From Candidatus Promineifilaceae bacterium (GTDB taxonomy: Bacteria; Chloroflexota; Anaerolineae; Promineifilales; Promineifilaceae), in NCBI GenBank assembly GCA_046259725.1, contig JBJYWZ010000663.1, forward strand, positions 16,098 through 80,097: 64,000 bases of DNA, read 5' to 3'. The notes beneath the pieces were generated by a model. The model was not told where the DNA came from. It was given only the letters and a program-made list of their open reading frames with translations, and did not search any database. The position numbers and the translations under genes were made by a program. Position 1 is the first letter of the stretch, and each line of letters opens with the position of its first letter. This document shows positions 4,113 through 64,000 of this stretch, in pieces.

Positions 4113-4150
4113 TTGAATTCCCTCCAGCCTTCTGTAAATGTTACTATTTC

Positions 4151-47704: not shown

Positions 47705-47867
47705 ACGCTTTCTCCTGTGAAGCTCACTATATTCTAGACGACGCGCGGCCTACGCAAAAGCGACGCTCGCCTGATGAACAGCTCGATCAACTGATTTTGG
47801 GGAACTGCCGGCAGCCACTATCCGTCAGGCATAACAAATCGGCAAACTGCCTTTTTGGAGGTCTGGC

Positions 47868-48455
47868 ATGGCACCAATTGTAGCAAGAACAATAAGCGAA
47901 ACGGCCAGAGTGCCTGTACAAATCAAGATTCAATTTTTACGCCAGGTGATCGATCGGCTCGTCTTACAAGATCTGCGATCTTTGCTAAATCCGGGACAGG
48001 CACCGGCACCTTTAGTCGGCGCGGCGATGCTGGGAACGCTTTTAAGCTTTATTCCCGTTCCCTTCCTGGATACCTTTCTGGTGGGCTTTATCTTCGCACG
48101 ATTCAGGAACGTGAACCGCGCTGCTTTGCTGGCCGCTCGCGTCCTCTGGAATGATCTTATCGTCATTCCACTTTACCTACCCGGCTTTCGCTTCGGGATG
48201 AGTCTTCTAGAACCGCATTTTGCGGACAGCTTGGGATTGCCGGTACAGGCGGGCGCCTTTTTGCTTGGTTTATTTGCCCTGATGTTACTTGCGACCTGCA
48301 TAAGCGCTGTCGTGATGTTCAGCTTCATAACTCTGCTGCAATACCGTCATGGTTCGGTGGCAAATGGGATGATTGCGGACTCAATCTACTCTACGCAGGG
48401 CCGCGCGCACGGGGCTTCCGTCACCGCCGGCGATCTTCAACGGCAAGGCGCATAA
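47868..48455 (+). CDS. DUF2062-like membrane protein
   Basis: 195 aa. GAAMLGTLLSFIPVPFLDTFLVGFIFARFRNVNRAALLAARVLWNDLIVIPLY resembles the DUF2062 core. The 3' end overlaps the convergent gene by 75 nt. Confidence 0.55.
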   Translation: MAPIVARTISETARVPVQIKIQFLRQVIDRLVLQDLRSLLNPGQAPAPLVGAAMLGTLLSFIPVPFLDTFLVGFIFARFRNVNRAALLAARVLWNDLIVIPLYLPGFRFGMSLLEPHFADSLGLPVQAGAFLLGLFALMLLATCISAVVMFSFITLLQYRHGSVANGMIADSIYSTQGRAHGASVTAGDLQRQGA

Positions 48456-49019
48456 TTCATACAACCCATCATCGGCAAGGCCTAGATCAAGTCCTTCGAG
48501 TATGGCGATCTTGTTTCTTACCATGGCCTGATGGCCCGGTAAAGTCGTGCTCTCCAGGGCATCCATAGATGGAGCATCGGTCCCATAAAGAACAACACCG
48601 CACTCTTTTAAGTAATCGGATAGCGCCGGATCGGGGTGGGGGAAAGCATTAGGAAACCGGTTGTATGGATTCTTGCCCGCTGGCGTACGCACAAGCAGGC
48701 GCGGCGCCAACGAGAGATCATACATGGAAAAATCTTCAGGCAGCAAGGAACCCTCTTTTTTCTGTGCCGTTACAACCTGGGCCAGTCCCCAATAGGGCAG
48801 GAGATCCACCTGGTCCATCTTTAATCCCTGGCTGGTGACATGGTAAGGCGCGTCAGCGTGGCTGGCCGTATGGGCGCTCAGTGTCAGTGTGGTCAGGTTT
48901 ACCATGTCGCCGGCATTGATGGACACTTGTGTCGCGATATTCACCGCTGTGTCGCCTGGCCAGACGGCCGTATCTTTGGCGATTTTCTTGCTTATGTCAA
49001 TAATGTGTGTGTTATACAC
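48381..49019 (-). CDS. Cyclase-family protein / kynurenine-formamidase-like
   Basis: 212 aa. H-x3-H-x-D-x-P-x-H metal motif (HTASHADAPYH). Confidence 0.75.
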   Translation of the reverse strand: MYNTHIIDISKKIAKDTAVWPGDTAVNIATQVSINAGDMVNLTTLTLSAHTASHADAPYHVTSQGLKMDQVDLLPYWGLAQVVTAQKKEGSLLPEDFSMYDLSLAPRLLVRTPAGKNPYNRFPNAFPHPDPALSDYLKECGVVLYGTDAPSMDALESTTLPGHQAMVRNKIAILEGLDLGLADDGLYELCALPLKIAGGDGSPVRAALRRVD

Positions 49020-49085: not shown

Positions 49086-50483
49086 ATGTCGCGAGACTTG
49101 AAAAGTATATTGGACATGAGTCGAGTTTCCAACCGGATTACGGTAAGAATATGGGAAGATTTGTCAGCACCCTCGTGGCAATGGGACAATAAGCATCCTA
49201 TGCTACCGCCAAATAAAGGGTTCTTCTTCTTGGTTCTTTCAGTTGTTTTGACGGCCGCCGGTCTGGCGGCCGTGCTTCTGGCGGAACCGAAACCGAGCGC
49301 GTTTTTGCCGGCGCTGTTCAGGCAAGATGACAAAGAACGGCCGATGCAGGAAGTGCGAGCCCTTTGGGTGACGCGCTTCGATTGGATGCAAACCGGTGAG
49401 GCGGATCCCGCAAAAATCGATGAGCTCGTAGCCAACGCCGCCTCAGCCGGCTTCAACACGATCTACTTTCAGGTGCGTGCTGAGGCCGACGCTTACTATG
49501 ACTCCAATGTTGAGCCCTGGTCGAGGCGCCTGACAGGCGAACTCGGCCGTGATCCGGGCTGGGATCCCCTGGCCAGACTGATCGGGAAAGCCCATACACG
49601 CGGCCTGCAGGTACATGCCTATATCAATGTATATCCGCTCTGGACGGGATGCGACGTGCCGCCAGACAACACGTCTCCGCGACACCTTTATTATCTTCTA
49701 CAAGATTATCACGGTACGACGGATGGGAAGCTCAATGGCGCTCAATGGAGCACGAACGATGCGGTTTACTGTCTTCCCTATTTCCGCGTCAGTCCGGCCT
49801 CGGTCATGTTTGACAACCATTTGTTGGCCGTGGTCAAAGATCTGGTGCAGAACAATGATATTGACGGCATTCATCTCGATCACATTCGCTACGCCGGAGA
49901 GCAGGCGTCCTGCGATCCAGTGAGCGAAGAGAGATTTGGTGAGGAGTGTTTCGGTTCCCCGGGATATGGGGATTGGCAGCGACAGCAGATCAATGGAACG
50001 GTTGAGAAGCTGTACAAAGAAGTAACTACCATGAATCCGCAGCTCTGGTTAACGGCGGCCGTCTGGCCGGTTTACCGGGATGTTTATGGTTGGGGCGTCA
50101 ACAGCGCATATGATACATATTACCAGGATCCGAAGGCATGGCTTTCCAGTGGCAATATCGATGGCGTTTCGCCAATGATTTACACTGGCAGCCCCGACTG
50201 CAATGGCACCTACTTCTGGACCCGGGAACGATGGTCGATCCTGGTTGACGATTACCAGCAGGGAGGCGGCGGTCGCTATGTAATTCCAGGCATTGGTGTA
50301 AACTACTGCACGTCAGATGATTTCGCCGAAATTGAAGCGCGCATTGAGATGGCCCGCGCGAAGGGTTCGGCAGGGCATGCCATATTCTCTTACAGCAGTC
50401 TGCTGCAAAAGGACTACTTTGACGATCTCGCCGAAGGTCCCTATTCCATACCGGCGAGCGTGCCTCCCTTGCCCTGGCATTAA
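49086..50483 (+). CDS. Glycoside-hydrolase-like family 10 (GHL10/DUF187, YngK-like) protein with N-terminal anchor
   Basis: 465 aa. TM FFFLVLSVVLTAAGLAAVLL, then RALWVTRFDW... and GIHLDHIRY motifs typical of GHL10 TIM-barrel proteins. The exact start is uncertain. Confidence 0.65.
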   Translation: MSRDLKSILDMSRVSNRITVRIWEDLSAPSWQWDNKHPMLPPNKGFFFLVLSVVLTAAGLAAVLLAEPKPSAFLPALFRQDDKERPMQEVRALWVTRFDWMQTGEADPAKIDELVANAASAGFNTIYFQVRAEADAYYDSNVEPWSRRLTGELGRDPGWDPLARLIGKAHTRGLQVHAYINVYPLWTGCDVPPDNTSPRHLYYLLQDYHGTTDGKLNGAQWSTNDAVYCLPYFRVSPASVMFDNHLLAVVKDLVQNNDIDGIHLDHIRYAGEQASCDPVSEERFGEECFGSPGYGDWQRQQINGTVEKLYKEVTTMNPQLWLTAAVWPVYRDVYGWGVNSAYDTYYQDPKAWLSSGNIDGVSPMIYTGSPDCNGTYFWTRERWSILVDDYQQGGGGRYVIPGIGVNYCTSDDFAEIEARIEMARAKGSAGHAIFSYSSLLQKDYFDDLAEGPYSIPASVPPLPWH

Positions 50484-50551: not shown

Positions 50552-50944
50552 ATGAACGATCAAGAACAGCAGAATCAGGATTGGCTTCTGAAAAAAGGTA
50601 AAATTGTCGAGCAGCCTTTTGAATCGACGGTCCCTTTATTTGGACCGCTCATTGCCCGGCTTCGCTCATCGTGGAACAACGTGGCCGCCAAGTGGTATGT
50701 TCGGCCGATGCTGGCGCAGCAAAATGAGTACAATCGTTTGCTTGTCGAGCGGGTACAAGATTTCGAGGCCTACACATACGAATTAACCGCTGAACAAGAT
50801 CGTGATTTGAGCCGGCTGCGGCACGACCTGGCCGCCTTACACCTTGAGCTGCGAAGACTGAACCAGCATTTAGACGACCTTGGCGCCCAATTGGGGGAAA
50901 TCAGCAGCGACCAGGAGTCCAGTGGTGACGGTGAGTCTGTTTGA
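50552..50944 (+). CDS. GT-associated small coiled-coil protein, paralog P1 (N-terminally shorter)
   Basis: 130 aa. Core VPLFGPLIARLRSSWNNVAAKWYVRPMLAQQNEYNRLLVERV aligns with P2-P4. Heptad-like tail LRHDLAALHLELRRLNQHLDDLGAQL. Confidence 0.65.
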   Translation: MNDQEQQNQDWLLKKGKIVEQPFESTVPLFGPLIARLRSSWNNVAAKWYVRPMLAQQNEYNRLLVERVQDFEAYTYELTAEQDRDLSRLRHDLAALHLELRRLNQHLDDLGAQLGEISSDQESSGDGESV

Positions 50945-50989
50945 ACTGAGCTGGCCCACGTTAAGCGAACTAATAATCGAGATGGCGCA

Positions 50990-52165
50990 TTGCGAATAGC
51001 ATACTTTAGTCCCTTGCCGCCGCAGCGGAGCGGTATCGCTGATTACAGTGGTGAACTGATTCCCCATCTATCACGATTAGCAGATCTAACCCTCTTTACG
51101 GCCGATCCCGATGCGGTGGATAAGGCTGTCGCCGTCCAATATGATCTGCGCAGTCACGAGCAGTTTGGAGATCTGAGCGATCAATTTGATCTCGCGCTCT
51201 ATCACATTGGCAACAGCGAGTACCATGATGATATTGCGCGTATAGCTTTTGATGCGCCCGGCGTCATTGTCTTACATGATCACAATCTGCACCACGCAGT
51301 GGCGCTGAGAACGATTGGCAAGGGAGACCGTTTTGCGTACGCTCGTGAAATGGGCTACGAAAGAGGAGCAGATGGCGTACGCCGGGCGATGGCTACTCGT
51401 TATGGCATCGAGCCGCCTCTATTTGAGAATCCTCTAAACGGCCGTTTGCTGGATGCAAGCCTGGGCGTAATTGTCCACAGCCAATATACGGCTCGGCTTG
51501 TTGAACGGCAGGGGTATAGAGGATCTCTGTCGATCATACCGGCACTCATAGCGCCGTTCTCCGGCCGGTCGCGCCGCCGCGAACTGAATCTTCCCGACGA
51601 CGCCGTGCTCTTTGGTAGTTTTGGCTTGATTTCGAAAGAGAAACAGATAATAGAGACGCTGCATGCACTGCGCCGCCTGCGCACCGAGATGCCGAACGCC
51701 TATTACTTGCTTGTTGGAAACGTCGTGGCAGAGCTGCCGGTTGAAGAGGCGATTCAAGAGTTGGGCCTGCACGACGCGGTTTTCTATGCCGGTTATGCCG
51801 CACAGCTCTCGGACTTTGTCGACTGGATCCATACGGCTGATGTCGTCATTAACCTGCGCAGCCCAACGGTTGGCGAAACTTCAGCGGCGGCGCTGCGAGC
51901 GATGGCAGCCGGTAAGGCGTTGATCATCAATGACGATGGCTGGTATCGCGAAATTCCTTCCGCCGCCGCGGCCAAGATCCCGCCTGGAGACGAAAGCGCA
52001 CTGCTGGACGTCATGCGCTCCATCGGGCAATCAGAAGCGGTGCGGCAAGCCATGGGAAATGCCGGCCGGCAATACACGCGTAAGGTATGCAGCCCCGGGA
52101 AAATCGCCGAGGAGTATGTCCGCACCTTGACCAGAATCATGAGGACGGCGCGGATTTATGGTTAG
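50990..52165 (+). CDS. GT4-family glycosyltransferase
   Basis: 391 aa. The TTG start yields MRIAYFSPLPPQRSGIADYS, a typical GT4 N-terminus. C-terminal Rossmann half with GETSAAALRAMAAGKALI. Confidence 0.8.
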   Translation: MRIAYFSPLPPQRSGIADYSGELIPHLSRLADLTLFTADPDAVDKAVAVQYDLRSHEQFGDLSDQFDLALYHIGNSEYHDDIARIAFDAPGVIVLHDHNLHHAVALRTIGKGDRFAYAREMGYERGADGVRRAMATRYGIEPPLFENPLNGRLLDASLGVIVHSQYTARLVERQGYRGSLSIIPALIAPFSGRSRRRELNLPDDAVLFGSFGLISKEKQIIETLHALRRLRTEMPNAYYLLVGNVVAELPVEEAIQELGLHDAVFYAGYAAQLSDFVDWIHTADVVINLRSPTVGETSAAALRAMAAGKALIINDDGWYREIPSAAAAKIPPGDESALLDVMRSIGQSEAVRQAMGNAGRQYTRKVCSPGKIAEEYVRTLTRIMRTARIYG

Positions 52166-54335
52166 CTGGCTTGTCATCCTGGTTGTCGCGCTTACTGTGA
52201 CTGGATTGGGCGGCATGGTGGTACTGCAGTTCTTACCACTGCGCGCATGGCTCTCTGTGGAGGGCATATTCGCCTCCCTGACCATCGGTACTGTGCTTGG
52301 CGGCTGGCTGGCACTTGTCCTGGCTGAAATGGGAGCATTTTCCCTGAGTTCATTGTTGGTTGTATGGTTGGCCGTCTTGTTGTTGCTTGGTGGAATCGCC
52401 GCTGCACGTCTGGAGAGCACAGCCGCGGCGTATGAAGTGCAGACGATCTCCGGTAAGACACAGGAGAACGAATGGACGACGGAGGACAGTTTCTTTCTAC
52501 TTCTGCTCATTGTCTGGCTCATTGCTGCTTTCTGGCTCTACTTTCGCCCGCATGAGTACATACTGGGCGGTGCCGATGCCGGTGTCTATGTCAGTATTGG
52601 CGCCGAAATTGCACAGAATGGCGGAATTACACAGCAGGATAAGGTGCTGTCGCAGTTGGATCCGGCGCTGCAAGCTGTCTTATTACGCCCGCTTCCTGGA
52701 AACCCGGTGGCCGGCTCCTATCTCTTTCCCGGTTTCTATGTTACGAATGCCGTTAGTGGAGCAGTTACGCCGCAGTTTTATCCCCTGCATCCGATATGGC
52801 AGGCCGTTGCATTCAGCATGAGTAGTTCGGTTGAGCAAGGCGTACGTGCTGAACTGCTGATCACGGGGATGTGGATGGCCCTGGCATCGCTGGCCGTCAT
52901 CCTGACGACAAGGGAGGTAGGGGGCCGGTTTGCCGCCGTATTGGTTATGGCGGCACTCGCCGTGGCGGCTTTGCAAGTGTGGTTTGCCCGCTACCCGACC
53001 ACCGAGGCGCTTACACAATTTCTTATGTGGTCAGGAATTTGGGCCACTGTGCGCTGGTTGGGTGATGAGAAACCGCCATCGTTATGGGCATTGGTCGGCG
53101 GATCAGCATTAGGTGCCGTGTTTTTGGTTCGCATAGACATGTTGGTACTGCTGCCGATATTTGTCGTTCTGGTGGCCGGATTGTGGCTGCGTGGTTGGAA
53201 AAGAAGTGACTGGTGGTTTCTGGTTCCCTTCTCATTTCTCGTTTTTTATTCCTTCTTTCATGGCATTGTCTTCAGTGCTCCCTACTTCAGCGAGCATGTT
53301 GGCTATGGTCTGAATTTGCTTCTGGCAAACTGGTGGATAATCATTGCCGGTTTGCTGATTGGGGGGAGCGCGTTATGGCTGATATCGCGTTACCGAGATA
53401 GGCATGGTGAGCTTGAGCGTTACCGCGCCCCTTTTCTTATACTTCTGATCGCTGGTTTTCTTGCGTACGCGATTTATGGATGGTTTATCCGGCCGGTCAT
53501 CAATGAGGCTACTTTGCGTCCCGATTTATACAGCGAGTCGCTGCTGCTGATCACCAATCACGAGAACTGGCGCCGCCTGGGTTGGTATTTGTCAGCGCCT
53601 GGGATATGGTTGGCCGTTGCCGGCATTTGCCTTCTGATCTGGCGAGTAGAAAGCAGAACAGCCCTGCTCGTTGCTACCGGCGTCGTGTTTTCCGTCATTT
53701 ACTTGTGGAATGCGCAGGCGAATCCGCACCAGATTTATGTCATGCGGCGCTATGTCCCGGTGGTGGCCCCGTTTTTTCTGCTGGCAGGCGCTTATTTTAT
53801 CAGCAAGGCGGCGGACTATGTTTATAGATCGAGGCAAGTGGGAGCGAACGGCCGTTTGGTCGGAATCATTACTACGCTGGCAGTGGGAGCGTTATGGCTC
53901 GCGCTGCTGGGATGGTCGGCGCGAGGATTCATCAGCCAGGTCGATAATAAGGGCGTTATCGAACAGCTTGCCCTGATTAACGATGAGCTTCCCCCGAACA
54001 GCGTGCTGCTTTTCTACGACCAATCTCCGGTGGGCCTGGGGGATTTTTGGGGAACGCCGCTGAAATATCTCTATGGTCATGACGCGTTTACCATTAGAGA
54101 TGTCGATCTACTGGCTGACGCGCCCCTGGCTGAGACCATTGAGTTCTGGCAAAATAGCGGTCAACCGGTTGTCTGGATTGGCGATCCAACCTGGCTGATC
54201 GATCATGATTTTGATTTCGAGGCGCACGGTTTTGATATCGCCAGCACGCAGATGGAGAGCAGCTACGAACATAAGCCTCAGCAGATTATTCCCGTGAGCT
54301 GGCGCCTGGAGGCCGCCTATATTGAGCGTAACTGA
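52158..54335 (+). CDS. Large polytopic membrane protein, GT-C-fold glycosyltransferase-like
   Basis: 725 aa, roughly 14 or more helices. An Asp-containing first loop (RPHEYILGGADAGVYVSIG) and a ~130-aa soluble C-terminus. The ATG overlaps the upstream GT4 stop by 8 nt. Confidence 0.45.
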   Translation: MVSWLVILVVALTVTGLGGMVVLQFLPLRAWLSVEGIFASLTIGTVLGGWLALVLAEMGAFSLSSLLVVWLAVLLLLGGIAAARLESTAAAYEVQTISGKTQENEWTTEDSFFLLLLIVWLIAAFWLYFRPHEYILGGADAGVYVSIGAEIAQNGGITQQDKVLSQLDPALQAVLLRPLPGNPVAGSYLFPGFYVTNAVSGAVTPQFYPLHPIWQAVAFSMSSSVEQGVRAELLITGMWMALASLAVILTTREVGGRFAAVLVMAALAVAALQVWFARYPTTEALTQFLMWSGIWATVRWLGDEKPPSLWALVGGSALGAVFLVRIDMLVLLPIFVVLVAGLWLRGWKRSDWWFLVPFSFLVFYSFFHGIVFSAPYFSEHVGYGLNLLLANWWIIIAGLLIGGSALWLISRYRDRHGELERYRAPFLILLIAGFLAYAIYGWFIRPVINEATLRPDLYSESLLLITNHENWRRLGWYLSAPGIWLAVAGICLLIWRVESRTALLVATGVVFSVIYLWNAQANPHQIYVMRRYVPVVAPFFLLAGAYFISKAADYVYRSRQVGANGRLVGIITTLAVGALWLALLGWSARGFISQVDNKGVIEQLALINDELPPNSVLLFYDQSPVGLGDFWGTPLKYLYGHDAFTIRDVDLLADAPLAETIEFWQNSGQPVVWIGDPTWLIDHDFDFEAHGFDIASTQMESSYEHKPQQIIPVSWRLEAAYIERN

Positions 54336-54379
54336 GAGGCAACCTCCGTGAACAGCGGGCGAGAGCCAGCGAGGAAAGC

Positions 54380-54907
54380 ATGTCAGAGAACAGTGTAAGA
54401 GAAACGCAGCGCGAACTGCCGTCAACTGATCTGATCGAGATTCACGATCCAGAAATCGATCAGGAAGCGATCATGGCCGAAATCAGACGACGTATTCAGG
54501 AGCGGCGGCAGGAATTGGGTTATGAGACAAAACAGTTCGGTACATACGGAGGCTCACATTTCCCCGGACGTCCGGACGATGTGCCTTATGATCCGGATTT
54601 CTATGACCATCTGGAGTTGGCCAATAGCCTTTATCTTCAAGCCCCGACCGAAGTAGATTTACAGCCTTCTCCGGCCACGCACGTGCCGGTTCTGGGCTCC
54701 TTGTGGTCATTGATTCGTGAGCAGGTGCATGGCCTGGTTCTGTATTATGTGAATCGCTCGGTAAGTCACCAGACCGGCGTTAACCGTGAAATTATCAGCG
54801 TCCTCAATAAGATGACGGCTATTAACCTGGAACAACAACGCACGATAGGCAGACTGCAGGCGGAACTTGATGGGCTGCGTGCGGAGCTGGAGAAACGCAA
54901 GAGTTAG
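54380..54907 (+). CDS. GT-associated small coiled-coil protein, paralog P2
   Basis: 175 aa. AIMAEIRRRIQERR, PDFYDHLELAN, PVLGSLWSLIREQVHGLVLYYVNRSVSHQTGVNREII, and tail RLQAELDGLRAELEKRK. GAGGA RBS upstream. Confidence 0.7.
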   Translation: MSENSVRETQRELPSTDLIEIHDPEIDQEAIMAEIRRRIQERRQELGYETKQFGTYGGSHFPGRPDDVPYDPDFYDHLELANSLYLQAPTEVDLQPSPATHVPVLGSLWSLIREQVHGLVLYYVNRSVSHQTGVNREIISVLNKMTAINLEQQRTIGRLQAELDGLRAELEKRKS

Positions 54908-54911
54908 GGGA

Positions 54912-56075
54912 ATGCGTATTGCTTTCATTTTAGCACGATACGGCCGTTCTGTTATTGGTGGTGCCGAGGTCCTTGCCCGAGGATTGGTTAGGGAGGCGGT
55001 AAAACAGGATTGGGAGGTAGAAGTATGGACCACCTGCGCGGTGGATTACACGACTTGGTCCAATGAGCTGCCGTCCGGTATGGCCATTGAAGAGGGAGTG
55101 CCCGTCAGGCGATTTCCTGTAGATGAGTGGCATGCCACGGAACACCATACCCTGAACCAGCGCCTCCTGCAGGGAAACTATCGGGATAGTACCTTCCAAT
55201 ATGACTGGGTTTCCAGCGGCCCACACAGCATGGAGCTGAACCAGTATGTCATGCGGAACGCGGGGGATTTTGATGCGATTGTTACCATGCCCTACTTGAA
55301 CAGCATCCCGTTTGACGCCGCCTGGCTCGCTGGCGATAACGTTGTGCTTGTGCCCTGCCTGCACAATGAACCGACCGCTTATCTGGAACCTTTCCGCTTG
55401 CTGCTTGAAACTGTATCCGGTGTCATTTTTATCTCGCCTGAGGAAGCCGGCTTTGCCCTTGATAATCTGGGAATTTCTATCGATCGCAGCGCAGTTATCG
55501 GCAGTGGTGTGGAATTTGAAGCCCCTTGCGATCCAAAGTCAGATAAAGGAGCGCCCTATCTGCTGTATGTGGGCAGGCTTGATCAGGGCAAGAACGTATC
55601 ATTGCTCTACGATTTTGTCAGCCGGTATGCCGAGGAGGGTGGGGATTTAAAACTTGTAGTTGCCGGAAACGGTCCCCGGAAACCCCCGGATCGCCCAGAA
55701 TTTATTTATCTGGGACCGGTTTCTGATGAAGAAAAAAATCGCCTGTACGGCGAATCGCTGGCACTTTGCCAGCCATCCTCGAACGAAAGCTTTTCCCTTG
55801 TTATCATGGAGTCATGGCTTGCCAGACGTCCGGTGCTTGTTTACGCAGGCTGTGATGTGACACAGGGCCATGTCCGGCGCAGCAAGGGCGGGCTGTGGTT
55901 TGATAACTACCAAGAATTCATAGGCGCGGTCGAGTGGCTAAAACAGCATGAAACAGCCGCAGCGCGCATGGGCCATAACGGATACCGTTACGTAAGTGAG
56001 AATTTCACCTGGCAGCGAATTTTCGATAAATTTGCCCGGACATTGTCAGCGTGGGGGTTTGGAGACAGTCGATGA
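54912..56075 (+). CDS. GT4-family glycosyltransferase (type a)
   Basis: ATG 4 nt after the P2 stop (MRIAFILARYGRSVIGGAEV). EX7E motif SSNESFSLVIMESW. Paralog of 57290-58468. Confidence 0.85.
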   Translation: MRIAFILARYGRSVIGGAEVLARGLVREAVKQDWEVEVWTTCAVDYTTWSNELPSGMAIEEGVPVRRFPVDEWHATEHHTLNQRLLQGNYRDSTFQYDWVSSGPHSMELNQYVMRNAGDFDAIVTMPYLNSIPFDAAWLAGDNVVLVPCLHNEPTAYLEPFRLLLETVSGVIFISPEEAGFALDNLGISIDRSAVIGSGVEFEAPCDPKSDKGAPYLLYVGRLDQGKNVSLLYDFVSRYAEEGGDLKLVVAGNGPRKPPDRPEFIYLGPVSDEEKNRLYGESLALCQPSSNESFSLVIMESWLARRPVLVYAGCDVTQGHVRRSKGGLWFDNYQEFIGAVEWLKQHETAAARMGHNGYRYVSENFTWQRIFDKFARTLSAWGFGDSR

Positions 56076-56119
56076 TTCCTCCTGCCAGATCAGGTCGGCG
56101 GGTCATTCCGTGAAGTTTT

Positions 56120-57190
56120 ATGAAAAAAAGGGTCCTACATCAGTTTCTCGTGGATGTTTCAACCGGAGATGCAACGAGTGACCATGCGTTCCTCATCCGC
56201 AGTTGGCTGCGTGATATGGGGTTTGAATCAGAAATTTACAGCCCCGAGTACGCGGAGGAGCTGGAAGCAGAAGTCCACCGCTTTACGCCGGGAGCCCTGA
56301 CGGGCCAGGAACTCGTTATCTACCATCATACGATTGGTTCGGTGAGCCTGGATAAATTGATTAGCCGGCGCATTCCACTGCTGCTTATCTATCACAATAT
56401 TACTCCCCCGAAATATTTCATAAGCACCGATCCTGTCCTGGCCGGCCAGTTGATAAAGGGCCGTGAACAACTAAGCGATATTCTACCGCTCACCCGCCTT
56501 GCACTGGGCGCTTCAGGTTACAGCGAAGAAGAGTTGAAGCAGATAGGGTATGAGAATACTGGTGTGCTGCCGATTGTCCTCAAGGAGGCGGCTTATGATA
56601 TACCGGTTGACGGCGCGCTTCAGGCCAGGATCCAGGATGGCGGGCCGACGCTTTTGTTTGTGGGGCGTGTCGCGCCGAATAAGTGCCAGGAGGACCTCGT
56701 GAAGTTGCTTTATTACGTTCGCCAGGTTCTTCCGCGTGCTCGTCTGATTCTGGTGGGAAGTCTTAAGGCAGAAAGTTACGTGCGCTGGTTGAAAGATTTT
56801 ATCGACAAAAACGGGCTCACTGATGCGGTGACATTAACCGGTCATGTCACGCAGCAGGAAATGGTGACCTATTACAGGTCGGCCGATCTATTTGTCTCAA
56901 TGAGTGAGCATGAGGGCTTTGGCAAACCGCTCATTGAGAGTATGTACCAGGGTTTGCCTGTCCTGGCCTACTCTGCAGCGGCCGTTCCCTCTACGATGGG
57001 GGATGCAGGGGTCCTCTTTACTAGAAAAGAGTTCGAGCCGCTTTCCGAAATGGTTCGGATTCTGTATGAGGACCAGGAGATTCGACAGAAGTTGATCATC
57101 ACCCAGACGCGGCGCGCGCAAGATTTTCTGGAGGCCAACGTCAGAATGCAGTTTAGAAAATATCTGGAGCAGCTAGACCATCTCCGTTAA
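56120..57190 (+). CDS. GT4-family glycosyltransferase (type b)
   Basis: 356 aa. EX7E motif SEHEGFGKPLIESM. About half the residues are identical by eye to 58564-59649 (VLHQFL...GDA...AFLIR.WLRD..FES.IY). Confidence 0.85.
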   Translation: MKKRVLHQFLVDVSTGDATSDHAFLIRSWLRDMGFESEIYSPEYAEELEAEVHRFTPGALTGQELVIYHHTIGSVSLDKLISRRIPLLLIYHNITPPKYFISTDPVLAGQLIKGREQLSDILPLTRLALGASGYSEEELKQIGYENTGVLPIVLKEAAYDIPVDGALQARIQDGGPTLLFVGRVAPNKCQEDLVKLLYYVRQVLPRARLILVGSLKAESYVRWLKDFIDKNGLTDAVTLTGHVTQQEMVTYYRSADLFVSMSEHEGFGKPLIESMYQGLPVLAYSAAAVPSTMGDAGVLFTRKEFEPLSEMVRILYEDQEIRQKLIITQTRRAQDFLEANVRMQFRKYLEQLDHLR

Positions 57191-57289
57191 GTGGATCTCT
57201 CTTTGTGCCATACCGAAGGGCAACTGGTGATGTTGGTTGATCGGGCCTGAACTATTTCAGGTCAAAGATAATTCTTGACGGCCAACTGA

Positions 57290-58468
57290 TCACTTGACGG
57301 TTAATGTTTCGAACAAGGCCTGAAATTTCGCCAGAATAATATCCCAGCTGAATCGTTCCTCTACAAAAGCGCGGCCCTGGCGGCCCATCGTGGCGGCCAA
57401 TTGGGGATCGCCCAATATACGGGTCAGAGCCAGTTCGAATTCATCGTAGTTGCCATAGTAGAGCCCACCGTTGCTCTGCCGGCACTGGTACTTCAAGACT
57501 TCGCTCTGGCCATTGACCAGCACCGGCGTTTCAACCAGCCATGACTCCAGGGCTACGAGTGACAGGCTCTCATACTGCGACGGTTGGACAAGGGCAACGG
57601 ACGCCGCCAGGGCGTCAAATTTATCTTCCTCAGAGACAAAGCCAAGCGAGATAATGTCCGGCCTATCTGGAATGGGCATATGCGCTTTGCCAATCAATAT
57701 GAGTTTGAGATCGGTCTCATGAGAATCGCGGTAGCGGGCGAAATAATCTAAAAGCTTGTGCACATTTTTGTTTTCATCCACGCGGCCTACATAGAGAATG
57801 AAATCACCGTCGATGTCATAGCTTGCACGAAAGCGGTCTGGGTTTACGTCTGCAGGCGTATCAATTCCGACCCCGGCCAAAAACTGAGGAATGTAGTTAT
57901 TCTGCATGGCGGATTGCACCATACGCATTTCGGGCTCAACATTATAGATAATGGCCTGTGGCGCATGGAATACCTGTCGCATGATTCCTAGCTTGAGGAA
58001 TGGCTCATCGTGAGCATGAGGAATCAGCAGGGCTTTATCAGACACGAGCGGCAGGCCGAATACAGTATGGGCGTAGAGGTAGGTTACAAAAATAAAGAGA
58101 TCGGTGTCGGCGTAGGCGCCGCGTATAGCCTCTAATAATTTACTGGAAAATGGTCCCTGCGCGCGTACCCAATCATATTCATCGAACAGCGTGTGTTCTT
58201 TCTGAAGGATATAGGCAGTACGCTCAACTCCGTCGCTCGCACGCTCATAGTCTACCGGGAATCGTTCGATCCTGACGCCGTTGAGTGTGGTACTGCCAGG
58301 TGCGTATTCATTTGCCCAGGTGTGGTAGTCGATGGCGCACGTCGTCAACACACGAACATCGGCGATTTCTGTCAGGTGTTCGGCGAGGAGTCGCGCAAAG
58401 AATTCTGCGCCGCCGTTGACCTCGCTGCCGTACCGTTGTACCACTATCGCTATTGATGGTTTATGCAT
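57290..58468 (-). CDS. GT4-family glycosyltransferase (type a')
   Basis: 392 aa. IAIVVQRYGSEVNGGAEF N-terminus and EX7E motif SQYESLSLVALESW. Paralog of 54912-56075. Confidence 0.85.
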   Translation of the reverse strand: MHKPSIAIVVQRYGSEVNGGAEFFARLLAEHLTEIADVRVLTTCAIDYHTWANEYAPGSTTLNGVRIERFPVDYERASDGVERTAYILQKEHTLFDEYDWVRAQGPFSSKLLEAIRGAYADTDLFIFVTYLYAHTVFGLPLVSDKALLIPHAHDEPFLKLGIMRQVFHAPQAIIYNVEPEMRMVQSAMQNNYIPQFLAGVGIDTPADVNPDRFRASYDIDGDFILYVGRVDENKNVHKLLDYFARYRDSHETDLKLILIGKAHMPIPDRPDIISLGFVSEEDKFDALAASVALVQPSQYESLSLVALESWLVETPVLVNGQSEVLKYQCRQSNGGLYYGNYDEFELALTRILGDPQLAATMGRQGRAFVEERFSWDIILAKFQALFETLTVK

Positions 58469-58563
58469 ATCGTAAGAATGTCGCTGAGTTTTTTCTTCCG
58501 CCGTGCCGGTATGAGTTGAAAGAACAAGGACCTATTTTTGCTGCGCGTGTGCAGAATCCGGGG

Positions 58564-59649
58564 TCAAGCAGATTGGGGATAAAGTAGTCCTATCTTCTGC
58601 AAAATGCCTTCAAAAGTCTGCCGCGTTCGGGCTTCTAAAAATGCCTGCACGCGTTCTGTCTGGCCAACAATTAAACGCTGTCTTAAGGCGTTATCTGTAA
58701 GCAAAATGTCGACCAGCTCGGCTAACTCCGCATAGCGCTTATCCGTAAACATAACTCCGGCGTCGCCCATCGTGTAGGGCACGGCCGTTACGCCATAGGC
58801 TAACACAGGCAGCTCGCAGTACATACTCTCGACGAGAGGGGCGCCGAAACCTTCATGTTCCGACATGCTTATGTAAAGATCTGTGGAGCGATAATAAGTT
58901 ACTAGATCCCGATGGGAGACCTTCCCGGTCAAGCATATGTTTCGCGACAAGTTGAGTGCGGCGGCCATTTGCTCAACATACCTGTCATAGCCTACCTCCC
59001 AACGGGATCCAACCAGATGGAGCCGTGCATCCGGATGGATACGACAAACATGGCCCATCAGCCGGACCAGGTCCTCTTGTTTCTTGTTCGGTGCAAAACG
59101 GCCTACAAACAATAGATTAGGACCGGTGGAACGTATCCTATCTGCGGTCGCATTGTTCGCCGGCAGATCATAATCATCTTGACGGAGCGTAATGGGAAAT
59201 ATGGCTGTCTTCTGATAGCCTGCGACAGATAGATCCTGTTCATTAAATTCCGAAACGGCCAGTGCCAGACCGGTCTGATCGCGCAGGGTGTGCAGCTGAA
59301 CCAAACCCTGCCGCGCCATGCCGGCCCACTGTGGATCGATACGGGCAAAGTATTCCGGCGGTGTAACATTGTGATAGATCAAGAGCAGGGTCAGCTTCTG
59401 CTCTGATAAAAACTGCGGTACGGCCGATCCGATGCTGTGATGATACACAGCCCAATTCTCTCCCGGCGCGCGGCGGTATGAATACAACGGCCGTACCTCA
59501 GCGCTTATGCTTTCATGAATATGGAGAGCATAGATATTCGATTCGAAAGCCAGATCGCGCAGCCAATTGCGTATCAAGAAAGCCTGCGCCGTGATTGCAT
59601 CCCCGGCGGCGGCACCGGTCAGGAATTGATGGAGAACTTGCCGGCTCAT
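58564..59649 (-). CDS. GT4-family glycosyltransferase (type b')
   Basis: 361 aa. EX7E motif SEHEGFGAPLVESM. The start codon overlaps the P3 stop (ATGA at 59646-59649). Confidence 0.85.
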   Translation of the reverse strand: MSRQVLHQFLTGAAAGDAITAQAFLIRNWLRDLAFESNIYALHIHESISAEVRPLYSYRRAPGENWAVYHHSIGSAVPQFLSEQKLTLLLIYHNVTPPEYFARIDPQWAGMARQGLVQLHTLRDQTGLALAVSEFNEQDLSVAGYQKTAIFPITLRQDDYDLPANNATADRIRSTGPNLLFVGRFAPNKKQEDLVRLMGHVCRIHPDARLHLVGSRWEVGYDRYVEQMAAALNLSRNICLTGKVSHRDLVTYYRSTDLYISMSEHEGFGAPLVESMYCELPVLAYGVTAVPYTMGDAGVMFTDKRYAELAELVDILLTDNALRQRLIVGQTERVQAFLEARTRQTFEGILQKIGLLYPQSA

Positions 59650-60113
59650 TTCCCCTCCCGCGCTTCTAGTTCCGCCCTCAAGTGGTCGATCTCCTCTTGC
59701 TGCGCTTCCACCACGCGCGTGAGCACGTTTAATGTATCGACCACTTCGTTGTTCATCCGGATTTGCTGTCGCACGGCTCGATTGACGTAAAACAAAATCA
59801 GGTCATGCAGTTGCCCGCGAAAACGCTCCCACAAATTGCCTATCCAGGGAGTGCGGGTCGCCGGCGAATCCGCCAACATGGGATCCAGATCGGGTGGGGG
59901 CATCTCATTAATCAATCTCAAATGGTAATAAAGATCGGCATTATAGGGGCGATCAGTTGGGGGCTGTGGCATAGCACTTAGCTCGCTAAATGCCGGAGCA
60001 TTGATTTCGAGAGGCCCCAACGCACCCTCGCGCGCGTTAGCCCGTCTCCTAAGTTCGGCCAATAGAGCGTCAGACGTCCATGTGCTGTCGTGAATTTTGA
60101 TCCAGTCGTTCAT
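59646..60113 (-). CDS. GT-associated small coiled-coil protein, paralog P3
   Basis: 155 aa. ALLAELRRRANARE, ADLYYHLRLIN, PWIGNLWERFRGQLHDLILFYVNRAVRQQIRMNNEVV, and tail EIDHLRAELEAREGK. Confidence 0.7.
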   Translation of the reverse strand: MNDWIKIHDSTWTSDALLAELRRRANAREGALGPLEINAPAFSELSAMPQPPTDRPYNADLYYHLRLINEMPPPDLDPMLADSPATRTPWIGNLWERFRGQLHDLILFYVNRAVRQQIRMNNEVVDTLNVLTRVVEAQQEEIDHLRAELEAREGK

Positions 60114-60184
60114 CTAGGTAACCAGAAACAAAGCGCCGGAACCAACCAACGCCACGCAACCGGCAAGCCCCAACGGTTGCTACG

Positions 60185-60562
60185 TTACAGCTCGTCCTGC
60201 TCCTCAAGATATTGGCTCAAGGTAGACAGCGCTTGTAAAAACTGCTGGTTCACCTCCGCCTGCTGATCGGTCAGTTTCTGAACATAGAAAATGACCAACT
60301 GGTGAAACATCGCGCGGAAGCGATCGATTATCCCGCCAAAGACCGCCACATTGGATTTAGTTACATGGATTTTTACGCCAAGTTGATTCTGCGCCAGAAT
60401 GGCACGGTATAGATGTTCGTAAAATTCAGGAGGTAAGTTTTCTCCTTTGATTGGTATATCAACCTGAGAAGGTAACTTGCGTTCCAGGACCTGCTGGCGG
60501 ATATCCTGCATAATTGCTTCAATGTTGACACGTTCGGTCAATTCTTGTTCCGAATCTTTCAT
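60185..60562 (-). CDS. GT-associated small coiled-coil protein, paralog P4
   Basis: The ATG at 60562 (MKDSEQEL...) is preferred over the TTG at 60625. AIMQDIRQQVLERK, PEFYEHLYRAI and AVFGGIIDRFRAMFHQLVIFYVQKLTDQQAEVNQQFL. Confidence 0.65.
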   Translation of the reverse strand: MKDSEQELTERVNIEAIMQDIRQQVLERKLPSQVDIPIKGENLPPEFYEHLYRAILAQNQLGVKIHVTKSNVAVFGGIIDRFRAMFHQLVIFYVQKLTDQQAEVNQQFLQALSTLSQYLEEQDEL

Positions 60563-61109
60563 AGTTGATTCCGGCCGTTGTCTGGAAAGTAGAGCGTCGA
60601 CAGGTCCAAATATACCACAGACCAATCAGGGCGAGTAAGCAGGCTCGATGACGTTATCCCTACGATTATTCATTCGATCCGTCCTGTTCTCCCTTATCCT
60701 TTACTGCATGCAGGGTTCCATAATCAGCTAATTTTCCGGCGAATTGACGTCTTGAACTGCGTATAGTACATGGTGATTCTATTAGAAATTTGTCGCAATC
60801 ATTCTCATTAAAGACGGTGGTGGTACTATGTGGCCCTGATATGGCTGCATGGAGTCCAATCCGGGAGAAAGCTCGGATTGCTGTTGGCCGATATAACGAA
60901 TCCATCCCAGTTATTCGTTGGCGAGCCGCATCCATCTTCCAGGGTTCTGTCTTACCTCACAATCGACATTTAGGGACACGGACCGGGACAATAAGCAGGT
61001 AAGCGTGAGTTGTTCAGGAAAGAAACTAACTGTTAATCTCTCGCTTTATCAGGGAAAGGATGTTCAAAAGAATCCCTTTCGGACATCAGGTTACGAGGAG
61101 AAATTATAT

Positions 61110-63089
61110 ATGTTCCGCAGCGCATTCATCAGGGAACGCATCCATTTTGCCTGGTTATTTGGGTTATTCTTGCTGCTTACAACCACGGTTTTGCTCAGTG
61201 CATCGGCCGATATCACGAGGGTGCGTGAAGCTCCTTTGTGGGAACGATCGCTGCCTTCAACATCCTGTCCCTGGTCAGATTCCGATACCTACTGCCACCG
61301 CGCCTCGCCCGTATTGGCGGACATCACGGGTGACGGTAATCTGGAGATAATCGTCGCCACAAACCGCGGACACGTACAGGCTTACCGCTACGACGGAAAA
61401 CTTCTGTGGAGCACAGACATAGCGCCTGCATTTGGTATGAAGCGGGATACACAAAAAACTGCTTCCTCTCCCGCCGTAGCCGATATTGACGCCGACGGCT
61501 ACATGGAAATAGTAATGGGTGCGGGCACCGTTAAGCGCAATATCTGTACACAAGGTGGGGTCATTGCTCTGGAGCATGATGGGAGTGTCAAGAAGGGGTG
61601 GCCGTTTTTGACAAAGGATGGTGATATCCCCCCCGCGGGATGCCGCGAAACAGTGTTTGCGACGCCGGCGCTTGGCGATCTGGACAAAGACGGTGACCTG
61701 GAAATTGTCTTTGGCGCCTTCGACAAACGTTTCTATGCCCTGGACCACAACGGCAGACTGCTGCCGGGATTCCCTCCAGACAGTTACCATTTCCTACGAT
61801 TCGGTTGGGATAATCTGATAGGCAGGCTGGGAGATACTATGTGGAGTTCGCCTGCACTTGCCGACCTTGACGGTGATGGTTACCTGGATATTGTTACTGG
61901 TGCGGACGAAGGGGATTATGATGGCAGATTTGTGCCGGTAATGGGATCGTGGAGCTGTCCCTATCGCTCACCGAACACACAAGGGTATTGCGGTGGATCG
62001 GTCTACGCATTTGATCGTTTTGGCCAGTTGATTCCCGGGTTTCCGCGTTATTTGTATGAGATCATCCAGTCTACCCCGGCCCTTCTGGATGTGGACGAAG
62101 ACGGCCGTTCCGAGATATTTGTCGGCGCAGGCGATTACTACTACCTGAACAGCCCGGACAAACCGAAATATGGATTCCGTCTTTTTGGTCTTGACAGCAA
62201 CGGTCGTGATCTTCCTGGATGGGAAGGGGGTAAAAAAGTTGGCGGCGTGGTTATTTCATCCCCGGCTATCGGAGATATCGATGGCGATAATGCTCCCGAG
62301 ATCGTGTTTATGGCCGGTGACGATAGGCTTTACGCCTTTGACTTGAATGGCCAGCGGGTTCCAGGTTTCCCGATGACGCCGCGGATTTATACCGGTTTAG
62401 TCTTGGATTCAAATACAGTGGGCTCGACTGCCATTCTTGCAGACTACACTGGCGATGGCAAAATGGAGATTTTTGTGCGGCATGCCTGGGAAACAAACAT
62501 CATCGATGGTACAGGGACGCAGTTGACAAAGACATCAAGCAGTGATTCAAAGCCGGCCTATATAACTCTAGGAAGCCTCTGGAACAGCCCCGCCGTGGGA
62601 GATCTGGATCGAGATGGACGTCTGGAACTGGTTTCTCAAAATAGCGAACTGACAGTATGGACACTTCCTGCTTCCTCAGGACTTGCCGACTGGCCGATGT
62701 TAAAAAGAGACGCAGCGCGAACTGGCGCGGTCGTACCTGATATCAGGGTAGAACCTGATACAATGCATATGGTGCACGAGAGTGGCAAAAAAACGAGTTA
62801 CACTACCTGGTTGAATTTGACCAGTTTTGCCGGAACTTTTGATTGGGCATTGAGCACCAATGTAAGTGGAGTAATCAGTTTTCCCAGGGAGTCGGGAAGG
62901 GTCAATGGGACCAGAATGGTTTCGGCTCTTTTGACTATTGACGGTGATCTTCCGCCCGGAGTTCACAAAATTGGCAGGATTGACTTAACCATCTCACGCG
63001 ATGGGGCTGTTCATGAAGTTGTAAGGATACCGGTATCTGTGACCGTTTTTAAGGACCTGAACCAGTCGTTCTTACCAGCTTTGCCTTGA
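61110..63089 (+). CDS. Secreted/anchored FG-GAP (integrin-alpha-like beta-propeller) repeat protein
   Basis: ATG at 61110 with a GAGGAG RBS and signal/anchor FAWLFGLFLLLTTTVLLSASA. Eight D-x-D/T-x-D-G-x-x-E/D-hydrophobic repeats: ADITGDGNLEIIV, ADIDADGYMEIVM, GDLDKDGDLEIVF, ADLDGDGYLDIVT, LDVDEDGRSEIFV, GDIDGDNAPEIVF, ADYTGDGKMEIFV, GDLDRDGRLELVS. Confidence 0.8.
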   Translation: MFRSAFIRERIHFAWLFGLFLLLTTTVLLSASADITRVREAPLWERSLPSTSCPWSDSDTYCHRASPVLADITGDGNLEIIVATNRGHVQAYRYDGKLLWSTDIAPAFGMKRDTQKTASSPAVADIDADGYMEIVMGAGTVKRNICTQGGVIALEHDGSVKKGWPFLTKDGDIPPAGCRETVFATPALGDLDKDGDLEIVFGAFDKRFYALDHNGRLLPGFPPDSYHFLRFGWDNLIGRLGDTMWSSPALADLDGDGYLDIVTGADEGDYDGRFVPVMGSWSCPYRSPNTQGYCGGSVYAFDRFGQLIPGFPRYLYEIIQSTPALLDVDEDGRSEIFVGAGDYYYLNSPDKPKYGFRLFGLDSNGRDLPGWEGGKKVGGVVISSPAIGDIDGDNAPEIVFMAGDDRLYAFDLNGQRVPGFPMTPRIYTGLVLDSNTVGSTAILADYTGDGKMEIFVRHAWETNIIDGTGTQLTKTSSSDSKPAYITLGSLWNSPAVGDLDRDGRLELVSQNSELTVWTLPASSGLADWPMLKRDAARTGAVVPDIRVEPDTMHMVHESGKKTSYTTWLNLTSFAGTFDWALSTNVSGVISFPRESGRVNGTRMVSALLTIDGDLPPGVHKIGRIDLTISRDGAVHEVVRIPVSVTVFKDLNQSFLPALP

Positions 63090-63106
63090 TTTGGTGAATC
63101 GAACGC

Positions 63107-64000
63107 ATGCATGTTTTGATTGCGACGCCAGCTTTCCCGCCATATATTGGCGGCGGGGAGCGGCATACCGGCACACTGGCAAAGAACCTCATCGGCCGCG
63201 GCCACACAGTCTCCGTGGTTACAAGTGCGGCGGAGGAAGAAAGTGATTTTTGGAACGGCCGTGGCCGGGATGTTGTCGTAGAAAGCGATGGCTCGGCGTT
63301 AACCATCATTCGCGTGCCTATACAGCCGATGCCGGGTGGCTTTCGCGGCCTGCTTGCCTGGCGGAAAAGCATGGTCGTGTTGTCGACTGTTCCCGGAACA
63401 GGCGGGTTGCTGGCCAAGATGGCGGGACGGGTTCCTGCCATGGCCAACCTGGATGAGGCTTTTGGAAAGATCGAGAAGCCGGTGGATGTGGTGCACGCCT
63501 TCAATATTTCCTGGGAACATATGATGATGGCCGGCTGGCAGTATGCGCGTCGAAATAGCATTCCCTTTGTTGCTTCACCACTGGCGCATCTCGGGACCGG
63601 GTCTCGCGACCGCGTTGCCCTCAATTCCACGATGCGTCACCAGCGCGCGATGCTGTCCAGAGCGGATCTGCTGCTGACGAACACGCTTGTGGAGGCGCAG
63701 GGCCTGCAATCTAGAGGCGTCAAAACGGAAAAAGTCGACGTTGCCGGTCCGGGCATAGATATCCCGGAATACGTGGCTGACCTACCGGAATCGGCCGTGT
63801 CTAAAAAACCCTTTGTGCTGTATGTCGGCCGTATGAGTTACGACAAAGGAGTGCTGCATGCTGTGCAATCGGTGCTGCGCCTGCGAGAGCAGGGCAGCAA
63901 GCTGCATATCATATTAATCGGTCAAGAAACAGAAGAGTTTTCCCGCTTTTTCGATGATTTACCTGACCGTGACAAGAGATATGTACATGTACTTGGCGTT
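63107..64000 (+). CDS. GT4-family glycosyltransferase, 3'-truncated by the window end
   Basis: Not in the ORF track because there is no stop in the window. ATG at 63107 reads MHVLIATPAFPPYIGGGERHTGTLAKNLIGRGHTVSVVT..., continuing in frame to 64000 (...PFVLYVGRMSYDKGV...). Confidence 0.8.
   Translation, partial: MHVLIATPAFPPYIGGGERHTGTLAKNLIGRGHTVSVVTSAAEEESDFWNGRGRDVVVESDGSALTIIRVPIQPMPGGFRGLLAWRKSMVVLSTVPGTGGLLAKMAGRVPAMANLDEAFGKIEKPVDVVHAFNISWEHMMMAGWQYARRNSIPFVASPLAHLGTGSRDRVALNSTMRHQRAMLSRADLLLTNTLVEAQGLQSRGVKTEKVDVAGPGIDIPEYVADLPESAVSKKPFVLYVGRMSYDKGVLHAVQSVLRLREQGSKLHIILIGQETEEFSRFFDDLPDRDKRYVHVLGV

Follow-up and report, generated by a model that had tools for sequence, protein, structure and literature searches.

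The stretch of DNA analysed here (the window: 64,000 nucleotides of a Candidatus Promineifilaceae bacterium of the phylum Chloroflexota, GCA_046259725.1, contig JBJYWZ010000663.1, positions 16,098 to 80,097) encodes four small proteins, P1 to P4, which lie among genes for glycosyltransferases (GTs) of family GT4. We propose that these proteins, which would have no catalytic activity of their own, serve as coiled-coil partner or docking subunits by which the enzymes of an ABC-transporter-dependent glycan pathway are organised, and we consider the chances of this proposal to be about even. It is established that the four proteins belong to one family, that their genes are coupled to GT4 genes and paired with them in a subtype-specific manner, that the same module is fused to enzymes of at least five classes as well as to itself, and that P and GT4 genes were duplicated together. 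An earlier reading of the window, made from its letters alone (the sequence-only reading), had suggested dedicated partner subunits. This suggestion is supported, with binding itself being inferred: the four proteins resemble one another significantly, they match no family with a known unrelated function, and their homologues are enriched next to GT genes. Among the three roles first suggested (membrane recruitment, oligomerisation and a chain-length ruler), oligomerisation, or complex assembly, fits best.

Relationship of the four proteins

The four open reading frames (ORFs) were found exactly where the sequence-only reading had placed them (Table 1), and the shared sequence blocks which it quoted are present in the proteins. 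P2 and P3 are 40 % identical (BLASTP E 6e-35), and P4 is matched by both P2 (E 2e-11) and P3 (E 9e-11); no significant BLASTP match was obtained between P1 and P2, P3 or P4. When the orthologue groups of P1, P2/3 and P4 were compared profile to profile by hhalign, the P2/3 group matched the P4 group (99.3 %, E 3e-20), and the P1 group matched both the P4 group (96 %, E 2e-9) and the P2/3 group (90 %, E 1.5e-6). The match of the P1 profile covers the core or head motif, not the heptad tail. BLASTP among P2 to P4, together with hhalign, upholds the claim of four paralogues with significant mutual similarity, P1 being the remote one because it is tied in at the profile level only. Judged by these comparisons, P1 to P4 are one family with three subtypes: P1-type, P2/3-type and P4-type.

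In all four proteins, the start of the long helix bears a head pattern that reads approximately P-x-x-G-x-h-h-x-x-h-R-x(3)-H/N-x-h-h-x-(F/W)-Y-V-x(5)-Q-Q-x(2)-h-N, with R, Y and Q invariant and P, G and N nearly so. P1 is devoid of the two N-terminal helices found in P2 to P4, and the length of the tail varies among the subtypes. Scores against the family profile A5, which itself contains these four proteins, range from 107 to 215 bits. Orthologues of the same lengths from Chloroflexota metagenome bins form 74 clusters with P2, 23 with P1 and 28 with P4 as a query, all labelled 'hypothetical' and lacking Pfam domains. For P4, an upstream TTG at 60625 is a possible alternative start, but most P4 orthologues have 125 amino acids (aa), as does P4 itself when read from its ATG.

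Coupling of P genes to GT4 genes

The gene junctions described in the sequence-only reading were all recovered. The P2 stop codon precedes a GT4 start by 4 nt (TAG-GGGA-ATG, GT4 start at 54912), the P3 stop overlaps another GT4 start in an ATGA (59646-59649), P1 lies 45 nt upstream of a TTG-start GT4 gene that begins at 50990, and P4 heads the P3 operon, ending 71 nt upstream of P3. P1 and the GT4 downstream of it share a reading frame, with one TGA and 15 sense codons between them (50942-50992); the two genes could have split recently, or the stop codon could occasionally be read through. Furthermore, the window carries two convergent copies of a three-gene module {P, GTa, GTb}, one at 54380-57190 on the plus strand and the other at 57290-60113 on the minus strand. 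In the second copy the gene order is swapped and P4 abuts P3, giving P4 > P3 > GTb2 > GTa2. The two copies are 40 % (P2 and P3), 36 % (GTa and GTa2) and 48 % (GTb and GTb2) identical. The similarity of all three pairs indicates that P, GTa and GTb were duplicated together, and identities of this level point to an old duplication rather than a recent repeat.

The arrangement was then compared in 80 loci from GTDB species representatives, found with alignment patterns of P2/3, and in several metagenome loci. All were scanned with a hidden Markov model (HMM) of the family and with the cluster proteins of the window, and the counts given below refer to 78 non-redundant Chloroflexota loci. As many as 78 of the 80 loci are labelled Chloroflexota, chiefly Anaerolineae-type lineages, a breadth that is biased by search patterns tailored to the P2 subtype. 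The exceptions by label are metagenome-assembled genomes of Zixiibacteriota (L024) and Woesearchaeota (L077), both with typical Chloroflexota-like P/GT4 clusters. Their labels probably stem from mis-binned contigs, as L077 differs hardly at all, in layout or in sequence, from L076 of Thermoflexales.

A GT4 gene follows within 400 nt after 106 of the 123 stand-alone P genes, and another P gene follows after 7 more. Considering gene order alone, GT4 comes next after 112 of 121 P genes, compared to a mean of 60 % when genes were shuffled within loci; none of 10,000 shuffles reached the observed value. A GT4 gene preceding the P gene was seen in only 38 of 96 cases. The enrichment beside GT genes, on which the sequence-only reading had made its proposal depend, is therefore strong, and it concerns the position directly upstream of GT4. 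The 106 P-to-GT4 junctions include 46 overlaps (32 of them ATGA) and 35 gaps of 0-20 nt, the median gap being 1 nt.

The pairing also depends on the subtype. P1-type genes are followed by GT4 genes of the GT_P1 class in 19/19 cases, P3-like genes by the GTb class in 22/22, and P4-type genes by the GTa2 class in 15/16, so that a P4-type gene stands directly upstream of a GTa2-class gene in most relatives; P2-like genes are followed mostly by the GTa class (37/49). The commonest layout is GHL10 > P1-type > GT > membrane protein > P4-type > GT > P2/3-type > GT > GT > FG-GAP. It amounts to one P per glycosyltransferase in an alternating P-GT-P-GT-P-GT order, which is found also in L086, and the window contains a rearranged version of it. 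Distance matrices of P proteins and of their adjacent GTs correlate with r ~0.8 within each class; this correlation was not used as evidence, since shared species phylogeny alone would produce the same.

Fusions of the module

According to the sequence-only reading, a similar module is fused to some methyltransferases and glycosyltransferases. Among stop-free ORFs such fusions were indeed found, with FkbM and Methyltransf_11 methyltransferases and with GT2 and GT4 enzymes, and in addition with a sulfotransferase. As for glycosyltransferases, the P1-type module is fused to the N-terminus of a GT_P1-class GT4 in four loci (L044, L046, L047 and L050), whereas P occupies the C-terminus of a GTb-class GT4 in L017 and of GT2 enzymes in at least 11 loci. 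As for methyltransferases, P occurs at the C-terminus of FkbM or Methyltransf_11 enzymes (P0265, P0269 and an 856-aa protein of L026), in an architecture with two Methyltransf_11 domains followed by P, and together with DUF4214 and FkbM in P0152 and in the same four loci (L044, L046, L047 and L050, at about 4150-5550). The sulfotransferase carrying P is encoded in L071. The module was also detected with DUF4214 but without any enzyme (P0156, P0177 and P0196), and fused to itself, either as a tandem (P0131) or as a P1-type joined to a P2/3-type module (P0198).

In L044, L046, L047 and L050, the P-DUF4214-FkbM proteins hold the locus position of P4 and their N-terminal module is of the P4-type. 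By position and subtype, P4 corresponds, as a protein of its own, to the N-terminal module of these methyltransferases. Psh, a protein containing DUF4214, binds O-antigen according to a preprint (10.64898/2026.09.02.748959). From this, the P-DUF4214-FkbM proteins are plausible glycan-binding terminators, and DUF4214 may, by analogy, serve here as the cytoplasmic glycan-binding domain of a chain-terminating methyltransferase.

When the P1-type module was searched against PLSDB by tblastn, the one match (E 0.05) was to the N-terminus of a methyltransferase from a deltaproteobacterial plasmid. This enzyme (L085; CP026659.1, 123447-124652) is encoded inside a GDP-mannose/glycosyltransferase cluster, and its N-terminal motif, VLRRVMGYFLVPVFGDQNKFNSAA, resembles the P1-type head. 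It gave no significant score against the family HMMs or against a P1-type HMM built from 45 modules, and may be a very distant relative outside Chloroflexota; we regard it as a lead and do not count it as a family member. A motif similar to the head, RR..(W/Y)(Y/F).P....QN.FN, occurs in proteobacterial methyltransferases.

Family size and predicted structure

Neither P1 to P4 nor the family profile matched any Pfam or NCBIfam family at threshold; there were only matches of 12-17 bits to unrelated coiled-coil families. The best match in a profile search of all PDB chain sequences was no better than E 0.9. Foldseek searches of the PDB returned 0 matches with the model of P2 and none at E<=0.001 with the model of the tandem P protein P0131. 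Thus, no family of known unrelated function emerged from Pfam, NCBIfam, PDB sequences or Foldseek with these two models, and the earlier statement that the proteins carry no recognisable catalytic motif agrees with the lack of any Pfam or NCBIfam family at threshold in P1 to P4. Membership in SlyX (PF04102) was considered and rejected: P1 and P3 reached 15.4 and 14.3 bits, respectively, against a gathering cut-off of 30 bits, and the match was confined to the tail. One P1 orthologue bears the JGI label 'uncharacterized coiled-coil protein SlyX'. SlyX and P proteins are both short, helical and rich in heptads, and the label reflects this coiled-coil composition, not membership.

The P family is large and unannotated. 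An exhaustive HMM search covering 1.84 billion representatives yielded 1,865 clusters (at 50 % identity) with E<=1e-3 and 636 with E<=1e-10; nearly all of the best 150 of the 1,865 clusters have lengths of 100-220 aa.

In the AlphaFold2 model of P2 (predicted local distance difference test score, pLDDT, 74), helices span residues 28-45 and 72-86 and a single helix of 70 residues spans residues 105-174. The model of the tandem P0131 shows the three-helix topology with a long terminal helix in both halves, the long helices having 73 and 84 residues. Head and tail both display an a/d heptad pattern. In its full form, P is hence predicted to be a small, soluble, acidic all-alpha protein with a short N-terminal helix, a second helix and a helix of about 70 residues that comprises the head followed by heptads. 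The absence of transmembrane segments claimed earlier was borne out, the highest 19-residue Kyte-Doolittle mean being 1.13, and all four proteins have an acidic net charge (K+R versus D+E: 14/22 in P1, 19/28 in P2, 17/24 in P3 and 12/18 in P4). Two other identities were rejected: dozens of genomes conserve the separate ORFs with their ATGA overlaps, which argues against a split GT pseudogene, and the lack of a DNA-binding domain argues against a transcription factor.

Proposed role in glycan assembly

Coiled-coil proteins are a hallmark of complexes in the ABC-transporter-dependent glycan pathway (PMC11231755). In L003 and L004, Wzm and Wzt, the latter with the cap-binding domain Wzt_C, are encoded directly upstream of the P-GT4 unit. 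In L086, Wzt alone is directly upstream of the alternating P-GT array, and in the syntenic locus L002 three distal GT4 genes beyond the FG-GAP gene are followed by ABC2_membrane (Wzm).

From these patterns, together with the gene pairs and fusions, we infer binding of P to GT, oligomerisation of P with P, and a scaffold role, which might operate as follows. Each P would be co-translated with its cognate GT4, i.e. P1 with the GT at 50990-52165, P2 with GTa/GTb, and P3 (with P4) with GTb2/GTa2. The P modules would associate with one another via the long helix, and this association would gather the polymerising GTs into one complex at the cytoplasmic side of a Wzm/Wzt-dependent pathway. Methyl- and sulfotransferases that bear P as a fused domain would join this complex in other genomes.

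Several observations speak against this proposal. The function cannot reside in the coiled-coil tail alone, since P4 has next to none. Many of the invariant head residues are polar (R, Q, Q, N) and could bind a ligand or substrate instead of serving a scaffold. The module is N-terminal in some enzymes and C-terminal in others, which argues against one fixed geometry. The tandem P0131 model, with a predicted template modelling score (pTM) of 0.46, says nothing reliable on how P modules pack against each other. The adjacency counts are not independent events, because the 78 loci come from one phylum and share ancestry. Finally, a search of the window for Wzm and Wzt turned up generic ABC ATPases at 43.5-45.5 kb and neither of the two, and the window shows no terminator enzyme. 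As for the transporter, the window ends inside a distal GT4 gene and the transporter genes are probably located just beyond.

An extension of the proposal, which we hold to be unlikely but plausible enough to state, is that P forms a portable docking system coded in sequence. Each enzyme (GT4, GT2, methyltransferase or sulfotransferase) would bear or pair with a P, and the subtypes would form a defined hetero-oligomeric helical bundle that fixes membership, stoichiometry and order in the complex. PKS/NRPS (polyketide synthase/nonribosomal peptide synthetase) docking domains and cohesin-dockerin pairs are likewise small, portable, non-catalytic modules, fused or stand-alone, whose cognate subtypes specify partners. 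They have no sequence or structural relation to P, and the likeness lies in fusion patterns and subtype-specific gene pairing only. If true, P would do for polysaccharides what docking domains do for PKS/NRPS, and glycan structure would be determined in part by it.

Alternative explanations

That the four ORFs arose by chance or as artefacts, or share a generic coiled-coil similarity without common ancestry, has a negligible probability. It would be in keeping with the lack of BLASTP similarity between P1 and P2 to P4, and with weak Pfam matches that are all to unrelated coiled-coil families. However, each ORF has 23-74 clusters of same-length orthologues with invariant non-heptad residues, the profile-profile matches fall on the head motif and not on the heptad tail, and the position relative to GT4 genes is conserved. 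By these orthologues, matches and positions the explanation is already refuted. A more serious alternative, still unlikely in our view, is that P acts as a GT-specific chaperone or activator, i.e. as a detached N-terminal domain needed for folding, stability or acceptor binding of GT4, with no higher-order complex. One-to-one subtype-specific pairing, translational coupling, the fusions of the P1-type with GT_P1, the shared frame of P1 and its GT with one TGA between them, and the many invariant polar residues of the head could all be explained in this way. On the other hand, the module occurs at either terminus of unrelated folds, that is GT-A (GT2), Rossmann methyltransferases and a sulfotransferase; P-P tandems and P-DUF4214 proteins exist without any enzyme; and arrangements such as P4-P3 and P4-P2 put two P genes before one GT pair. 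The fusions to unrelated folds and the P-P tandems do not fit a GT-specific chaperone.

The remaining two suggestions are a chain-length ruler and membrane recruitment. According to the first, the long helix is a spacer of the WbdD/WbbB type between polymerising GT4s and a terminating enzyme and fixes the length of the polymer. In its favour, the Wzt of related loci has the cap-binding Wzt_C, candidate terminators (FkbM and class-I methyltransferases and a sulfotransferase) occur as fusion partners of the module, all published terminators of the pathway carry a coiled coil (PMC11231755), and the subtypes differ in tail length. A ruler is nevertheless improbable, given that each GT4 has its own P instead of one ruler per system, that P4 has virtually no tail, that no membrane-anchoring element was found in P1 to P4, that the module stands at either terminus of its fusion partners with the catalytic domain of GT2-P and methyltransferase-P fusions adjoining the head and not the far end of the helix, and that no terminator is visible within the window. 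A WbdD-like ruler role is conceivable but not specifically supported. The other suggestion, membrane recruitment, would have the aromatic-rich head act as an in-plane amphipathic helix that tethers soluble GT4s near their lipid-linked acceptor. GT4s acting on polyprenol-linked acceptors need membrane association, and W, Y, F, L, I and V abound in the head, which has some R and K besides. WbdD, moreover, uses a C-terminal amphipathic helix (PMC11231755). Nonetheless, all four proteins are net acidic and have no transmembrane segment, the head follows the a/d heptad pattern typical of helix-helix packing, and the top three hydrophobic-moment windows miss the aromatic-rich head helix in every protein, those of P2 and P3 beginning at the YVNR end of the head and running downstream. 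Because of the acidic charge, the lack of transmembrane segments and a head that is not a cationic amphipathic helix, a membrane anchor is disfavoured, and membrane recruitment, though it was among the roles first suggested, is quite improbable.

Comparison with known systems

The closest parallel to the proposed partner subunits is WbdD, the chain-length regulator and terminator of E. coli O9a and K. pneumoniae O3 (PMC11231755, PMC3482155). WbdD is cytoplasmic and acts in an ABC-transporter-dependent glycan pathway, as is proposed for P. It has an extended helical or coiled-coil element; in P a long helix is predicted from the models of P2 and P0131, with an a/d heptad pattern, although P4 has almost no tail. 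WbdD is believed to bring GT4-type polymerising enzymes together in a complex, again as is proposed here for P, and in relatives of P methyltransferase domains share a chain with the module. In contrast to the multidomain WbdD, P1 to P4 are much smaller (125-175 aa), have no methyltransferase or kinase catalytic domain (no Pfam or NCBIfam domain) and no C-terminal membrane-binding amphipathic helix, their C-termini being acidic or heptad-like without a hydrophobic segment. P is present in one copy per glycosyltransferase and WbdD in one per system, and P has the conserved non-heptad head motif. WbbB of K. pneumoniae O12 and Raoultella terrigena and ORF6 of K. pneumoniae O7 are multidomain polymerase-terminators with a central coiled coil (PMC11231755). 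Here too, a coiled coil is linked to GT and terminator modules, and the P fusions in relatives follow a comparable modular logic. However, the P proteins of the window are separate polypeptides without detectable homology to these enzymes, and P is a sequence family common to many enzymes rather than a system-specific spacer. No similarity of P to solved WbdD or WbbB structures was detected by the PDB profile search or by Foldseek with the P2 and tandem-P models. Lacking catalytic domain, membrane helix and similarity, P is not a member of the WbdD/WbbB families. On the proposed reading, for which the chances are about even, the P set would be a split and multiplied analogue of their coiled coils. 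A co-polymerase of the Wzz type, with two transmembrane helices flanking a periplasmic coiled coil, was rejected, as P has no transmembrane segment and no Wzz match in Pfam.

Enzyme assembly in ABC-transporter-dependent glycan pathways is understood for only a few proteobacterial O-antigen systems, in all of which the coiled coil sits within a large catalytic protein. In the P system the helical element forms a sequence family, existing as a stand-alone small protein, one per glycosyltransferase, and also as a domain on at least five enzyme classes. Its functional logic would be that of the coiled-coil scaffolds known from ABC-transporter-dependent glycan assembly, in a form that is stand-alone, multiplied and conserved in sequence. 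If P is an assembly module, complexes in uncultured Chloroflexota could become predictable from sequence, the P-P and P-GT pairs would provide a simple handle on how the composition of a complex controls glycan structure, and thousands of 'hypothetical proteins' would gain an annotation from a new domain model.

Other features of the gene cluster

Coordinates of P1 to P4 and of the genes around them are listed in Table 1.

Table 1. Genes of the P/GT4 cluster in the window. The five GT4 enzymes neighbouring P1 to P4 all match Pfam Glycos_transf_1
Feature	Positions	Strand	Description
GHL10 glycoside-hydrolase-like protein	49086-50483	+	conserved first gene of the cluster
P1	50552-50944	+	130 aa; conserved head PLFGPLIARLRSSWNNVAAKWYVRPMLAQQNEYN, heptad tail, acidic low-complexity C-terminus
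GT4 'GT_P1' class	50990-52165	+	TTG start; cognate of P1
Polytopic membrane protein	52158-54335	+	725 aa; cluster-conserved; first 8 nt shared with the end of the preceding GT4 gene
P2	54380-54907	+	175 aa; P2/3-type
GT4 'GTa'	54912-56075	+	387 aa; 4 nt downstream of P2; 36 % identical to GTa2
GT4 'GTb'	56120-57190	+	356 aa; third gene of the P2 module; 48 % identical to GTb2
GT4 'GTa2'	57290-58468	-	392 aa; GTa paralogue; last gene of the P4-P3 operon
GT4 'GTb2'	58564-59649	-	361 aa; start overlaps the P3 stop (ATGA)
P3	59646-60113	-	155 aa; P2/3-type
P4	60185-60562	-	125 aa from ATG; N-terminal helix, second helix, head; coiled-coil tail nearly none
FG-GAP repeat protein	60918-63089	+	distal side of the P/GT4 block in most relatives
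Further GT4	63098-64000	+	start only; runs past the window end

In most relatives, too, the 725-aa membrane protein is encoded after the P1-GT pair and before the following P gene. It has no Pfam or NCBIfam match itself, but its syntenic counterpart in L002 (727 aa) matches PMT_2 weakly, as does a similar 746-aa membrane protein of L087 with PMT. On account of these weak matches it is a candidate GT-C transferase, and it may represent an undescribed GT-C-type transferase that acts on the outer face.

Here as in most related loci, the P/GT4 block is bracketed by the GHL10 and FG-GAP genes. Their products may be a processing enzyme and the target or partner of the glycan, respectively. Upstream of the glycan cluster (46583-49019) the window encodes a MutY-like protein (HhH-GPD/NUDIX by synteny with L001), a DUF2062 protein and a putative cyclase. 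MutY and the cyclase also precede the cluster in L001, and the cyclase does so in L002 and L087 as well; conservation of the neighbourhood thus extends in part past the glycan cluster.

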